Shown here in pieces: positions 6,075 through 45,190 of a stretch of 64,000 nt of DNA; position 1 is the stretch's first letter, and every line of letters begins with the position of its first letter. This DNA comes from Saprospiraceae bacterium (lineage in GTDB: Bacteria > Bacteroidota > Bacteroidia > Chitinophagales > Saprospiraceae). Under the pieces are notes generated by a model. It did no database searches. It was not told where the DNA came from and saw only the letters and a program-made list of their open reading frames with translations. The stretch lies in contig JBGSKO010000116.1 of the NCBI GenBank assembly GCA_041741155.1, positions 29,103-93,102 of the forward strand, written 5' to 3'. Position numbers and translations under genes: made by a program.

Positions 6075-7241
6075 TTACATCAGCAGCCGCTCCAAATAGT
6101 GCTCCCCGATGCCGAACCCGGTCTTCAGCGCGGCTACTTTTTCCAGTGCAGCGGCTTTTTTCCGGGCGTCGCTGCGGGCGTCGCCGATGGCGGTGATCAT
6201 CACATTTTTGGCGGTATGCTCGGTGGAGACAAACTCAAACACGTTGGTTTTGTAACCGTTGGCTTCGAGCAGGAGCGCCCGGATACCGTCGGTCACGATC
6301 TCGGCCTGGCGCTCTTCGAGGATGCCGTGGCGGAGAATGGGCGCCAGTTCGTTGTGCGTGTCCATGTCGCGGCGGATCTGCTTGTGGCAGCAGGGCGCAG
6401 CCACGACGATGCCAGCCCGGGCGTGTATGCCGGTGGCCAGCGCAAGGTCGGTGGCGATGTCGCAGGCGTGCAGGGCGATGAGCATGTCGAGGCGCTCGGG
6501 TTGGTACGCGGCGATGTCCTGTGCGACAAATTGCAACCCCGCGAAGTTTGCTGCGCGGGCGGTTTGGTTGCAAAAGTCCACAAGATTCTGGCGCAGTTCG
6601 ATGCCGGTGATCTGTGGTTGCAGGCCGAGGTGGTTGGTCAGAAAATCGTACAGGGCGAACGTGAGGTAGCCTTTGCCGCTGCCCATGTCGGCGATGTGGG
6701 CATCCGGCGGCAGGGGGTGCGTGCGCAGCAGGCTCTCGATGATTTCGAGGTACTTGTTGATTTGTTTCCACTTGTCCTGCGCGGTGGGCAGCACCTGGCC
6801 TTGTTTGTTGGTGATGCCGAGGGCGTGCAACCACGGTGCTGCGGGGTCGAGCAGGCGGTGCTTTTCGCGGTCGTGCCGGGTGTCGGGTGGGGTGGTGCTG
6901 GTTGGTTTTTTTGTGGAAAAAGCAGCGGTACCGTTTTTGGAAAAGGCCAGTGAACTATCTGCTTCGGCGCTGAACAGTTCAGCGTTCAAAAACACCTTGC
7001 CGAGCAGGGCCTCCAGTTGCAGGGCAGCATCCACGGCGGTGAAATTCTTCACCTCGTCGCGGGTTTGGTAGCGGAATGTGAAGGCGATATGTGGTCCGGA
7101 TTTGAGTGTCACCGGGCGCAGATAAATGTTTTTCAGCCCTTCTGCCGCGGTAGCGGTGGGTTTGCTAAGGGTGCATTTTAGAAAATGTCCGGCGGAGCAG
7201 GCGCTGCGAAAGGCGTCGAGAAATTGTGTTTGTGGTTGCAT
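6075..7241 (-). CDS. class I SAM-dependent methyltransferase (Methyltransf_32-like)
   Basis: DMGSGKGYLTFAL provides the GxGxG motif I, and an ALHACD motif is present. 388-aa ORF. Confidence 0.8.
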   Translation of the reverse strand: MQPQTQFLDAFRSACSAGHFLKCTLSKPTATAAEGLKNIYLRPVTLKSGPHIAFTFRYQTRDEVKNFTAVDAALQLEALLGKVFLNAELFSAEADSSLAFSKNGTAAFSTKKPTSTTPPDTRHDREKHRLLDPAAPWLHALGITNKQGQVLPTAQDKWKQINKYLEIIESLLRTHPLPPDAHIADMGSGKGYLTFALYDFLTNHLGLQPQITGIELRQNLVDFCNQTARAANFAGLQFVAQDIAAYQPERLDMLIALHACDIATDLALATGIHARAGIVVAAPCCHKQIRRDMDTHNELAPILRHGILEERQAEIVTDGIRALLLEANGYKTNVFEFVSTEHTAKNVMITAIGDARSDARKKAAALEKVAALKTGFGIGEHYLERLLM

Positions 7242-23228: not shown

Positions 23229-23783
23229 ATGCTTATGCAGAAATTATTGGTTTTGTGTGGATTTTTTCTCCTGTTCCACGCCGCCCTGCCGGGGCAAGCA
23301 GCCGACACGCTGGTATTCCCTGCATCCTGGGCAGGCACCTGGCAGGGAACCCTGGATATTTTCAACGGCGGCGGTAAAGTGCAGTCTGTGCCCATGTGGG
23401 TCGAAATCCAAAAAATAGACACCTCCACCACGGGGCGCTACACGTTTGGACTGGTTTATGGCTCCAAACAGCAGGACTGGCGGCCCTACGAACTGGTACC
23501 CGTGGAACCGCAATACGGCCTTTGGAAGGTGGACGAGAAAAACGGCATCGCCATGGAAAGCTACCTGTTCGGCCCCAAACTGCTGTGCTGGTTCACCGTA
23601 GAGACCAGCCGCGTCCTTTGCACCTACGAGAAACGCGGCGATGAAATGATCTTTGAGGTTTACTCGGGTATGGAGTCCGCGATCAGTACCACCGGCAATG
23701 GCACCCACAATGGAGAATCCATCCCGGAAGTGAAAACATTCCCGTTCAGTGTATTCCAGCGGGCGGTGTTGAAGCGGGGTTGA
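23229..23783 (+). CDS. secreted hypothetical protein
   Basis: 184-aa ORF with signal peptide MLMQKLLVLCGFFLLFHAALPGQA. The stop codon lies inside the first GTTGAG repeat. Confidence 0.6.
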   Translation: MLMQKLLVLCGFFLLFHAALPGQAADTLVFPASWAGTWQGTLDIFNGGGKVQSVPMWVEIQKIDTSTTGRYTFGLVYGSKQQDWRPYELVPVEPQYGLWKVDEKNGIAMESYLFGPKLLCWFTVETSRVLCTYEKRGDEMIFEVYSGMESAISTTGNGTHNGESIPEVKTFPFSVFQRAVLKRG

Positions 23784-24221
23784 GGGGAGTTGAGATAGTT
23801 GAGGGGGTTGAGATGGTTGAGGGGGTTGAGGGGAGTTGAGTAGGTTGAGAGGAGTTGAGGAGATTGAGAGGCGTTGAGGAGATTGAGCGTTAGATGCCGT
23901 TTGGGGCCTTGTTTTGGTTTAAAATTATTTGATAATCAAGCGGTTGGCGCGGGGTCAAAAGACCCACGCGCGGCGTTTCAGGGATAATCTCAACTCATCA
24001 ACGCCGCGCTTGGTGTTTTCACCAAGTGCACACCATGATGCACACGAAACTGTTTGGGCGTGGTAAAACACCAAGCACGTTTCAAAATATTTGACAATCA
24101 AGCGGTTGGCGCGGGGTCAAAAAGTTGGACGACAGTCGCCCAATTTCTCTCAACGCTCAACCCTCTCAACCCCCTCAACCATCTCAACCACTCTCAACCA
24201 CTCTCAACCATCCCTCAACCC
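23779..24221. repeat. GTTGAG/CTCAAC word-array inverted repeat filling an intergenic region
   Basis: There are 12 TTGAG words at 9-10 nt spacing (23779-23888) and 8 CTCAAC words (24149-24221). A 25-bp perfect complement exists between 23806-23830 and 24165-24189. The centre holds a ~40-nt direct repeat (23921-23961, 24083-24124) and small hairpins. Confidence 0.75.
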
Positions 24222-31491: not shown

Positions 31492-31640
31492 GGAGGGTTA
31501 GAAGGTTTCTGGTTAGAAGGTTAGAAGGTTTCTGGTTGGAAGGTTTCTGGTTAAAGGTTAGAGGGTCCCTGGTTGGAGTAACCAGAAACCCTCTAACCAG
31601 AAACCTTCTAACCTTCCAACCCTCCTAACCAGAAACCCTG
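31492..31640. repeat. word-array inverted repeat (GGTTAGAAGG / GGTTTCTGGTT words and their complements)
   Basis: The left half consists of degenerate tandem words and the right half holds their reverse complements. The apex hairpin is CTGGTT-GGAGT-AACCAG (31569-31585). GGTTAGAGGGT (31556-31566) pairs with ACCCTCTAACC (31588-98). The array ends 5 nt from the gcdH stop. Confidence 0.7.
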
Positions 31641-42428: not shown

Positions 42429-42529
42429 ACATTGAAGTTTACAGGGTTTTGGGGTTTATGAATGTTGAGCCTGTATTGCTCAACACCCATAAACCCCTTG
42501 AACCATTTTGAAATAGTAATTACGTACGC

Positions 42530-43021: not shown

Positions 43022-43257
43022 AATCGTGTGTTTTTGTATTTGAATAAGCAGTCGCAAAGGTGCAACAAGTGCTTTCCTGCTTTTATAAAATTCAATGAAC
43101 ACCGCAGATTCACCCATAAACACCCGCTTTATCTCATAAACCCAATTTCTTGCAAAAATCAGCCGGACATTGAGCCGATCCCGGGGTTGAAAGGCAACAC
43201 ACCGGTGTTGGTTGAGAATAATTGGGCAGATGCAAGACGTTTGGCACCTTTGCAACT

Positions 43258-44322
43258 ATGCATTTACCGCGTCGAAATACCTGGTTACAAATTCTATTCT
43301 GGGGTGCCCTGTGGGTACTGGTGCCGGTGGCCCTCGCCGGCAACTGGGAAAACACCGAGCGGCTCGTCGTGCGGAGCGCCGTAGTGCTCACAGGCATCGC
43401 CCTCGTCGTGTGGGCTAATGTGGAAATTTTGCTCCCCAGACTTTATTTTAACAAAAAACAGGTCGCTTACATCCTGGCGGGACTGGCGCTTCTGGTGGGC
43501 ATTGTTTTGCTGGTGGACTGGGATGCGGCGCCCTGGGCCGAACATTTTACCCGGCCACGCACCAATGACAGTACCGGCCGCGGCGGCAATCCACATAACA
43601 ATCCGGGGTACCGCAGCATGAAATATATCGGTATGGCCATGCCTTATTTCACGGCATTGATCGGTAGCGCCCTGTTTGAAGTGGCCAGTTTTGCCAACCG
43701 CAAGGAGCGCGAGGCCACGGAGTTTCGCAGCGAAAAACTGGAGGCTGAACTAAAGTTTCTCAAATCCCAAATCAACCCGCACTTCCTGTTCAACGCCCTG
43801 AACAACATTTATACCCTGACGGTCATCAAGTCTGATCAGGCGCCCGACAACCTGCTCAAACTATCCGGTATGCTGCGCTATATGTTGTACGACTGCAAAG
43901 CCGACCGTGTACCACTGGGCAAAGAAATTGAATACTTGCGGCACTTCATTGATCTGAACCTGCTCAAAGACAGCCGGGGACTCAATGTGACGGTAAGCCT
44001 TGATGAATCGCGGCCGGCGCTGTCCATCGCTCCAATGCTTCTGATTCCTTTCGTGGAAAACGCATTCAAACACAGCAAAATTGAGGATCGCGCACACGGC
44101 TGGATCCGCATCGAATTGCAAACTGCCGCCGGTCATATTCAATTTACTGTGGAAAACAGCGTGCCAGAAACCGCCCACACCAAGGACCAATCCGGCGGCA
44201 TCGGCCTGAAAAACGTGCGCCGCCAACTCGAACTCCTCTACCCCGACCAACACGAACTAACCATTGAACCCGGACCAGATACTTTCCGCGTCCGACTGAA
44301 ATTGTTGGTTGAGAACGGTTGA
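43258..44322 (+). CDS. LytS/YehU-type sensor histidine kinase
   Basis: N-terminal membrane helices. The QINPHFLFNALNNIY block is the His_kinase (PF06580-type) H-box. A C-terminal ATPase-like GGIGLKNV block is present. Confidence 0.85.
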   Translation: MHLPRRNTWLQILFWGALWVLVPVALAGNWENTERLVVRSAVVLTGIALVVWANVEILLPRLYFNKKQVAYILAGLALLVGIVLLVDWDAAPWAEHFTRPRTNDSTGRGGNPHNNPGYRSMKYIGMAMPYFTALIGSALFEVASFANRKEREATEFRSEKLEAELKFLKSQINPHFLFNALNNIYTLTVIKSDQAPDNLLKLSGMLRYMLYDCKADRVPLGKEIEYLRHFIDLNLLKDSRGLNVTVSLDESRPALSIAPMLLIPFVENAFKHSKIEDRAHGWIRIELQTAAGHIQFTVENSVPETAHTKDQSGGIGLKNVRRQLELLYPDQHELTIEPGPDTFRVRLKLLVENG

Positions 44323-44468
44323 GAAAAGTTGAGAGGGTTGAGACGGTTGAGTTGAGAGCCCGGCTGCTGCTTAAGACTGTTCAGAAAGCTCTGAACTTTC
44401 CCAACATCCCTCCTCAACCCTCTCAACTTTTCTCAACCTTTCTCAACTTTTCTCAACCTTTCTCAACC
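44308..44468. repeat. GTTGAG/CTCAAC word-array hairpin between the kinase and regulator genes
   Basis: Six GTTGAG words lie at 44308-44356 and six CTCAAC words at 44413-44467. A 25-bp perfect complement links 44318-44342 and 44413-44437, extending to about 35 bp with 1 mismatch. The array starts inside the HK stop codon region and ends 9 nt before the RR ATG. Confidence 0.8.
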
Positions 44469-44476
44469 ATAACACA

Positions 44477-45190
44477 ATGAAACCCATCCGTTGCCTTGTC
44501 GTGGACGACGAAGAACTCGCCCGCACCCTGCTCCAGAACTACATTGGGCGGCTGCCCCATCTGGAACTCGTCGCTTCCTGCGCCAACCCGCTCGAAGCTA
44601 TGAGTGTACTCCAGCAGCAGCCCATTGACCTGTTGTTTCTCGATATCCAAATGCCCGAACTTACCGGAATTGAGTTTCTCCGCACCCTGACGTACAAGCC
44701 GCTGGTCATTTTCACCACAGCTTATACCGAATATGCGCTGGACGGTTATGCGCTGGATGTAACCGATTACCTGCTCAAACCTTTTTCCTTTGAACGGTTC
44801 CTGCAAGCCGTGAACAAAGCGGGAACACTCTTGCAGTCCCGTAACGGAAATACCCCGATCGTTCTGGAAACCGAAACGCCCGTCAAGGACTACATTTTGG
44901 TAAAAGCCGACCACAAGGTACATCGGCTCAAAATGGACGATATTCTCTACATCCAAAGTATGCGGGAATATGTAGCCTTCCACACGTCGTCCGGCCGTTT
45001 ACTTTCCCTCAATGCACTGAAAAACCTGGATGAAGAATTACCCCCGGAGCGATTTATCCGAATCCACAAATCCTATATTGTGGCGATAGACAAGATAGAT
45101 ACGCTCGAAGGAAACCTCGTACACGTAGGCAAGGAAAAACTGCCCATCGGAGCAAGCTACCGGGACGCGGTGGTGCGCAGGGTATTTTAA
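44477..45190 (+). CDS. LytR/AlgR-family response regulator (receiver + LytTR DNA-binding domain)
   Basis: The receiver domain has VVDDE...LLFLDIQMPELTGIEF. The C-terminal LytTR domain has ILYIQSMREYVAFHT...FIRIHKSYIV. Confidence 0.9.
   Translation: MKPIRCLVVDDEELARTLLQNYIGRLPHLELVASCANPLEAMSVLQQQPIDLLFLDIQMPELTGIEFLRTLTYKPLVIFTTAYTEYALDGYALDVTDYLLKPFSFERFLQAVNKAGTLLQSRNGNTPIVLETETPVKDYILVKADHKVHRLKMDDILYIQSMREYVAFHTSSGRLLSLNALKNLDEELPPERFIRIHKSYIVAIDKIDTLEGNLVHVGKEKLPIGASYRDAVVRRVF

Follow-up and report, generated by a model that had tools for sequence, protein, structure and literature searches.

In the genome of a Saprospiraceae bacterium, the gap between a LytS-type histidine kinase (HK) gene and the gene of its response regulator (RR) is filled by a long hairpin built from two facing arrays of a short word, GTTGAG, and its complement, CTCAAC. 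The hairpin lies in a stretch of 64,000 nucleotides (GenBank assembly GCA_041741155.1, contig JBGSKO010000116.1, positions 29,103 to 93,102 of the forward strand), hereafter the window, whose coordinates are used below unless another contig is named. The hairpin is probably one copy of a lineage-restricted family of word-array foldbacks with a fast turnover, a tolerated and possibly modulating repeat of selfish or neutral nature and not a dedicated regulator. Because it belongs to a genome-wide, fast-changing family, it is probably not a purpose-built switch of the HK-RR operon. The parts of this reading that concern the family, its insertion at the junction and its turnover are well supported, and the part in which the hairpin preserves translational coupling between the two genes is plausible from predicted geometry.

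Structure of the kinase-regulator junction

The six GTTGAG words start at 44308, 44318, 44328, 44337, 44346 and 44351, and the six CTCAAC words at 44413, 44422, 44432, 44442, 44452 and 44462 (Table 1). The arms 44308-44342 and 44413-44447 are complementary over 35 nt with one mismatch (97%), and within them 44318-44342 and 44413-44437 are exact complements over 25 nt; the 10-nt tandem TCTCAACYTT is present in four in-register copies. All of this agrees with the original prediction, a reading of the sequence that had expected the hairpin to influence the relative expression of the two genes. The HK gene ends in TTG GTT GAG AAC GGT TGA, with the stop codon (44320-44322) inside the second GTTGAG word, so the last four codons (VENG) and the stop are contributed by the repeat array. 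On the other side, the last CTCAAC ends at 44467, and the RR ATG follows at 44477. The 3′ arm constitutes the G-free sense-strand leader of the RR gene. The strand of the 5′ arm is purine-rich and contains TGA in one frame. The loop had been given as about 70 nt with a GTTCAG/CTGAAC stem of its own; the inner stem is present, but the stated loop includes two more words, and the unique core is therefore only 56 nt.

The stability foreseen for the structure was borne out by folding. The minimum free energy (MFE) of the junction RNA was -84.3 kcal/mol, compared with -43.7 ± 4.1 kcal/mol for dinucleotide shuffles (z = -9.9), and none of 200 shuffles was equally stable. In the MFE fold, 89% of the RR positions -25 to +3 are paired, and the outermost helix takes in the A and U of the start codon. 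A scan for intrinsic terminators found no site in the junction: the stem of about 35 bp with its 56-nt core is followed only by TTTT and then C, and the short GC stem followed by a T-run that partial termination would call for is missing. A promoter scan of the junction with sigma-70 and Bacteroidota-type consensus sequences also found none. Rfam 15 gave no match at the gathering score; the only hits were sub-threshold miRNA-precursor models, which are generic matches to long hairpins.

Table 1 Features of the kinase-regulator junction and related foldbacks in the window.
Feature	Position	Strand	Remarks
HK gene, LytS-type with His_kinase domain	43222..44322	+	Pfam PF06580, E 6e-22
5′ arm, six GTTGAG words	44308..44356	+	Word spacing 10, 10, 9, 9 and 5 nt
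Unique core, 56 nt	44357..44412	+	Single match in the genome
Inner 7-bp stem GTTCAGA/TCTGAAC inside the core	44379-44396		Present in the MFE fold
3′ arm, six CTCAAC words	44413..44467	+	Word spacing 9-10 nt; includes the TCTCAACYTT tandem
9-nt linker CATAACACA, last word to RR ATG	44468..44476	+	Kept as CATAACACG in the closest relative examined, G017
RR gene, receiver and LytTR DNA-binding domains	44477..45190	+	Pfam PF00072, E 7.5e-21; PF04397, E 1.2e-18
Second foldback of the family	23779..24219	+	10 + 8 words; 270-nt core of other nested repeats
Minimal one-word foldback GGGGTTTATGaatGTTGAGC...GCTCAACaccCATAAACCCC	42451..42500	+	Joins two of the genome's words

The window contains 61 copies of GTTGAG where 27.5 ± 5.1 are expected, and the excess lies almost entirely in the HK-RR array and in a foldback at 23779-24219. 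The latter, singled out earlier (as 23779-24221) for its similar architecture and vocabulary, belongs to the same family and spans from the stop of its upstream gene to 11 nt before the next ATG. A small GTTGAGC/GCTCAAC hairpin that had also been pointed out is present at 42464-42484, inside a longer GGGGTTTATG...CATAAACCCC palindrome.

A polar, genome-wide family of arrays

The genome (G000), placed in Saprospiraceae/Lewinellaceae by the relatives of its regulator, is a fragmented metagenome-assembled genome (MAG) of 5.86 Mb in 223 contigs, for which gene starts and ends were taken from simple open reading frame (ORF) rules instead of a gene finder. With an array defined as three or more words, we found 143 GTTGAG arrays at 114 loci in the whole genome, with a period mostly of 9 and less often of 10. 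The suspicion of a genome-specific element family was thus correct, and the family turned out to be lineage-specific.

The arrays are polar throughout the genome: just before a start codon the sense strand is CTCAACYYY, with hardly any G, and where arrays are paired the GTTGAG arm comes after the stop of the preceding co-directional gene. Using an ATG-initiated ORF of at least 80 amino acids within 60 nt as the test, an outward start was found beside 80 of 136 arrays (59%), most commonly at a distance of 8-12 nt, compared with 13% in the mirror control and 17% at random positions. The sense strand of GTTGAG-type arrays consists of 0.8% G, 49% C, 26% T and 25% A. Ordinary leaders are themselves G-poor, having 17% G at -20 to -1 against 27% genome-wide. 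This polarity, together with the use of several words besides GTTGAG, had been overlooked in the earlier reading.

About a fifth of the loci are inverted pairs. In the roughly 25 pairs the order was always GTTGAG array, core, CTCAAC array, and never the reverse. Fifteen of 20 internal pairs lie between co-directional genes and three between divergent genes. In the 15 co-directional pairs the upstream stop lies between -14 and +15 relative to the GTTGAG arm's outer edge, and the downstream ATG usually lies about 10-50 nt past the CTCAAC arm; the stem begins at or before the upstream stop in all 15 and closes near the ATG in most. Filling the gap between a stop and a start, as at the HK-RR junction, is therefore the usual habit of the family, and the placing of stop and start at the base of a very stable stem, which the original prediction had described for this junction, is found in most of these 15 foldbacks. 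At every locus the arms show differences in word number and in spacers. The core of the HK-RR foldback occurs once in the genome, and larger cores are composed of other nested repeat families.

Two such repeats could be recognized. One, about 130 nt long and with TTGACAATCAAGCGGTTGGCGCGGGGTCAAAAG in it, is found at 15-35 places (including contigs C208, C83, C75, C131 and C193) and twice in the core of the 23779-24219 foldback (23928-23980 and 24092-24125). A 33-nt near-perfect palindrome, AGACTTTCCAGGTTTGACAAACCTGGAAAGTCT, occurs at C68:9751-9783 and about 67 other places and is nested in some foldback cores.

Since the HK-RR array abuts the gene of a LytTR regulator, an operator made of DNA-level binding iterons comes to mind. 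The LytTR consensus half-site is GTTN[AG][TG], which GTTGAG fits, and LytTR operators are paired 9-bp direct repeats with a 12-13-bp spacer at LytTR-regulated promoters. However, the arrays have a 9-10-nt period and not the 21-nt LytTR phase, with periods of 7 to 15 among words; more than 100 arrays adjoin unrelated genes; and of eight LytTR loci one was near an array, where chance would give about 0.5. Given this lack of enrichment near LytTR genes, we rejected the operator identity and regard DNA-binding iterons as an explanation that can practically be set aside.

Other words

Tandem Repeats Finder (period 6-21, at least three copies) reported 416 arrays, 80 of the GTTGAG type and 336 of other words, such as CATTCAT, AGTGATG, AACCTTCT/GGTTAGAA, GATTGATTC/CAATCGAAT, CATAAACCC and the 15-mer TCCAACCAGAAACCC. 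When only arrays flanked by a gene start on one side but not the other are counted, 46 of 48 GTTGAG arrays and 87 of 138 other-word arrays had less than 8% G in the sense strand, and the opposite polarity was seen in two and six, respectively. That unrelated words with different periods follow the same rule speaks for composition more strongly than for a particular site. Examples of other-word arrays, which mostly have a G-poor sense strand before a start codon, are found at C120:72135-72522 and C104:95812-96225.

The 15-mer and its complement GGTTTCTGGTTGGAG form foldbacks too, at 31496-31639 in the window (C116:60598-60741) and at about 130 other places. The 15-mer is abundant in four genomes only: G017 (154 copies), G000 (132), G002 (20) and G005 (7). 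Isolated CTCAAC words were not enriched before starts (11.9%, with control words at 9-16%), and the idea that single CTCAAC words are favoured there as "seeds" was rejected, their frequency being within the range of the control words.

Distribution across genomes

A three-word GTTGAG pattern gave 342 matches in G000, 176 in the congener G009 and 4-8 in each of G011, G014 and G017; 13 further congeners had none, and neither had 12 genomes of the order's other families. The reversed-pattern control gave none in G000 and at most two in any other genome. The arrays of G009 follow the same polarity (an outward start beside 16 of 35, an inward start beside three of 35) with spacers that differ from those of G000. 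At nine orthologous sites of G000 arrays, array-rich G009 had no array (0/9), and the unique HK-RR core had no match in metagenome or species-genome collections. A literature search found no paper on GTTGAG arrays.

The same words were also seen in other genomes. Ignavibacteria MAGs (L141, L162 and L180) contain GTTGAG/CTCAAC arrays with AT-rich spacers (TTC, TAA, AA), none of 11 beside a start codon. A Lewinellaceae MAG, HK-STAS-BACT-32, contains two near-identical GTTGAG/CTCAAC foldbacks 4.8 kb apart (L158:1440-1650 and 6220-6430), whose flanks are conserved and are followed by a GC-rich hairpin; this pair hints that array and flank can be copied together as a unit.

The placement of the arrays invites a functional interpretation, in which the G-free arrays are modules of the leader that enhance initiation or serve as platforms for a trans-acting factor (an S1- or Csp-type RNA-binding protein), substituting for a Shine-Dalgarno sequence, and the complementary arm makes the leader conditional. 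The tight placement 8-12 nt before the ATG and the strict polarity in two species agree with such a role, as do the conservation of the hexamer relative to its variable spacers, the restricted and species-specific vocabulary, and the similar placement of published TAACTGA repeats, for which a post-transcriptional regulator was proposed (PMC4679880). However, arrays were absent from the orthologous genes, most genes have no array, isolated CTCAAC words are not favoured before starts, and several unrelated words with periods of 7, 8, 9-10 and 15 obey the same rule. The word also lacks complementarity to the 3′ tail of 16S rRNA: pairing of CUCAAC was dismissed with the genus tail, GGCUGGAAUACCUCCUUU, which contains no GUUGAG (G000 itself has no assembled 16S). 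We regard a functional leader module as unlikely.

History of the kinase-regulator junction

The junction was compared among 12 congeners with an orthologous regulator. In seven of them (G067, G005, G038, G032, G052, G007 and G014) the HK stop overlaps the RR start as ATGA, GTGA or TTGA; in two a short plain gap separates the genes, two have lost the upstream kinase gene and one, G017, carries an element. The kinase-regulator junction was thus ancestrally a 4-nt stop/start overlap (NTGA). In the two congeners whose regulator lacks an upstream kinase gene (G002, L085; G039, L249), other hairpin repeats precede it, for example gcagagacgcagagacgcggag...ctctgcgtctccgcgcctctgcggtg.

A foldback occurs at this junction only in G000 and in its closest relative among those examined, G017, whose kinase is 84-90% identical. 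In G017 the junction has the sequence ctgttgGTTGAGcaggttgctggttag...(ccagaaaccYtccaa)x3 cctgCTCAACcataacacgATG. Its element has the same termini as that of G000, with 1 + 1 words and an inner array of the 15-mer in place of the 6 + 6 GTTGAG/CTCAAC words. It folds at -35 kcal/mol, with the kinase end pairing with the regulator leader. The HK C-terminus is ...RLKLLVENG* in G000; in congeners, where the stop overlaps, it is ...RL(K/T)x(D)V(S/P)*. The first GTTGAG occupies the place of the ancestral last two kinase codons (GTG NCN). As the congener junctions are free of the element and that of G017 has different contents, the foldback is derived, entered the junction before the split of G000 and G017, and has since changed in word number and type in place. 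Two further foldbacks, at C62:149867 and C215:14844, are likewise found in both genomes, those of G017 being made from GGTTAGAA and GGTTTCTGG words; the C215 junction is tight in six more distant congeners, with the stop 5-12 nt before the ATG. The G017 kinase orthologue (L086:2830-2860) aligns as two overlapping pieces in different frames, which may reflect a frameshift or an assembly error.

These comparisons bear on the idea of the original prediction that the hairpin is a dedicated post-transcriptional regulator, whose stem would set the kinase-to-regulator ratio by terminating part of the transcripts, by serving RNases as a target or by protecting the 3′ end in the manner of a REP. The structure is highly stable and sits exactly between two cistrons, and G017 retains a weaker foldback with the same outer stem, as would be expected of such a regulator. 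Against it, a simple NTGA overlap serves most congeners, even G017 has different contents, orthologous sites of another species lack the arrays, 14 further, unrelated junctions of co-directional genes are built alike, and the HK-RR junction has neither a terminator-like feature nor an Rfam family at threshold. A device made for this operon is therefore improbable.

A preformed foldback moved by a transposase, that is, a non-autonomous mobile element of the type of MITEs (miniature transposable elements with inverted repeats) or REPINs, would make the HK-RR copy a simple insertion. The inverted repeats, the many intergenic copies and their patchy occurrence among congeners would suit such an element, as would a 29-nt core fragment beside the CTCAAC arm that is common to two loci and the two near-identical Lewinellaceae foldbacks with conserved flanks. 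However, comparison of the filled HK-RR junction with the empty ones revealed no target-site duplication, cores are unique or consist of other repeats, word number and spacers vary at each locus, and G000 and G017 differ by an in-place change of copy number. The occurrence of Y1 transposase (RAYT) genes does not follow that of the arrays: congeners free of arrays have PF01797 (six in G007), and G017 has none. The RAYT of G000 is moreover flanked by an unrelated REP hairpin of its own. We therefore consider transposition of a preformed unit decidedly improbable. At the RAYT locus itself (C174:8450-9250), the REP hairpin ACAAACGTGCGACCTCTGRCGAGGTCG stands on both sides of the Y1 (RAYT-type) transposase gene, making a classical REP-RAYT pair that has no relation to the word arrays.

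A probably tolerated word-array foldback

In the interpretation that we favour, a short word (GTTGAG plus a 3-4-nt spacer) is repeated in tandem arrays that pair with their inverted complement. The arrays would lengthen and shorten through replication slippage, of which the spacers carry a signature: identical spacers make up 33% of neighbouring and 47% of next-but-one spacers, compared with 8% between arrays. The similarity of the arms may be maintained by hairpin-templated repair, and selection would spare only the observed polarity. In this orientation the GTTGAG arm, with its TGA, would shut the upstream reading frame within a few codons, as at HK. The CTCAAC arm, being G-free, cannot hold ATG, GTG or TTG; its word has no stop in any frame, and it cannot pair with itself. 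Such properties would matter because Bacteroidota initiate translation without Shine-Dalgarno pairing, tuned by mRNA structure (PMC6847099, PMC7797042).

On the HK-RR mRNA, the paired arms (-84 kcal/mol) would hide about 89% of the regulator leader and the start codon. Because the HK stop lies within the 5′ strand, a ribosome terminating on HK would have to open the outer stem, about 30 bp as estimated from the usual ribosome footprint, and the RR start and its G-free leader would be freed. The inserted DNA would be looped out, and the coupling once given by the ATGA overlap should persist. The element may thus be tolerated because its stem sets the stop and the start at its base, and translation of RR is likely still dependent on that of HK.

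Several observations weigh against this interpretation. Co-transcription of the genes, formation of the hairpin in vivo and coupling are each inferred. Arms of the same locus are only modestly more alike than arms of different loci (0.65 against 0.55, p = 0.015), and four of five perfect palindromes lie at contig ends and may be assembly artefacts. Single arrays likewise sit in co-directional gaps, so a foldback is not needed for tolerance, and 41% of arrays have no nearby start detectable with our crude ORF criterion. The hexamer is about 98% conserved per site over more than 100 loci while the spacers vary, which pure slippage does not explain, and slippage gives no reason for the small vocabulary or for the different words of sister species at the same junctions.

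The conserved hexamer, the few words and the word switches between sisters are compatible with a trans-acting factor specific to the word or with a mechanism of copying. Taken further, the genus might possess genome-wide, species-specific "word leaders", Shine-Dalgarno stand-ins read by a word-specific trans factor, with the inverted arm making downstream translation conditional on upstream translation; a word switch would then reflect co-evolution with the factor or active copying, not drift. We think this a doubtful scenario.

Many arrays terminate contigs. Perfect word-array palindromes lie exactly at the ends of contigs C53, C60, C75 and C212 and are probably fold-back artefacts of the assembler. 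In C53 the left and right arms are exact reverse complements, and the right arm is identical to the end of C121. Copy-and-paste of an array with its core was rejected as the origin of this identity, which most likely represents one locus split at contig ends.

Comparison with known repeat systems

The original prediction could not assign the element to a described class. Start-proximal direct repeats of another word are a described class that comes close. We take the cyanobacterial STRR heptamers to be among the closest known systems. The nearest resemblance is to direct repeats of the heptamer TAACTGA, which occur in Beggiatoaceae, Cyanobacteria and a small number of Bacteroidetes (MacGregor 2015, PMC4679880). 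These form more than 100 sets per genome, mostly intergenic and "forward" to a start codon a few nucleotides downstream; some overlap the end of the upstream ORF, and the distribution among lineages is patchy, the intergenic regions of relatives being shorter and repeat-free. They have no proven function, a post-transcriptional role was proposed, and a single inverted repeat was found (PMC4679880).

The present arrays are similar in that tandem sets of short words are numerous in one genome (114 GTTGAG loci, 416 arrays in all), in forward orientation, with the array ending a few nucleotides before the start codon, and in that they are patchily distributed. In contrast to the fixed TAACTGA heptamer with period 7, the present unit is CTCAAC with a variable 3-4-nt spacer and a period of 9-10. 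Its sense strand is almost G-free, about a fifth of the loci are inverted pairs that form very long hairpins from stop to start, and several words per genome are used that differ between sister species. The resemblance is therefore one of kind and not of sequence family.

REP, BIME and REPIN sequences with RAYT transposases are abundant intergenic hairpin repeats of Proteobacteria that are often located in operons, are co-transcribed and affect mRNA stability. The word arrays also form hairpins between a stop and the next start. However, a REP is an imperfect palindrome of 20-40 nt, whereas the unit here is a direct word of 9-10 nt and palindromy arises only from paired arrays, and the arrays have no cognate, co-varying Y1 transposase gene.

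The Correia/NEMIS elements of Neisseria and the pneumococcal BOX elements, with variable boxB number, are bacterial MITEs that fold in mRNA. They share with the foldbacks the inverted ends, a modular interior of variable copy number, a position adjacent to genes, co-transcription (presumed for the foldbacks) and possible effects on the expression of neighbours. Unlike these MITEs, the foldbacks have no target-site duplication and no conserved consensus or internal sequence, and the number of their 9-10-nt words changes in place. Contingency loci, in which phase variation arises when a simple sequence repeat differs in copy number among members of a population and thereby switches expression, are a further class for comparison; the copy-number change seen for the foldbacks is one between species.

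Translational coupling through structure, where a downstream start is exposed by translation of the upstream gene, operates at the coat-replicase junction of phage MS2 and at atpH-atpA of E. coli. Similarly, the upstream stop at the HK-RR junction lies inside the strand that pairs with the downstream initiation region, and a terminating ribosome would open this pairing. Here, however, coupling is deduced from geometry, and the stem is far longer (about 35-45 bp) and made of recently arrived repeat DNA.

Implications

For genome analysis, the arrays break short-read assemblies, many of them lying at contig ends, and they yield false "regulatory hairpins" and altered gene ends in annotation. If coupling at the junction operates as its geometry suggests, this two-component operon would be a natural experiment, in which a stop/start overlap was lost to 154 nt of repeat DNA and folding may keep the coupling. 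Arrays of this kind, polar, free of G, close to start codons and made of species-specific words, number in the hundreds, and the phylum starts translation without Shine-Dalgarno pairing. The arrays are thus a tractable system for learning what makes a Bacteroidota leader work and how short repeats spread and homogenise.

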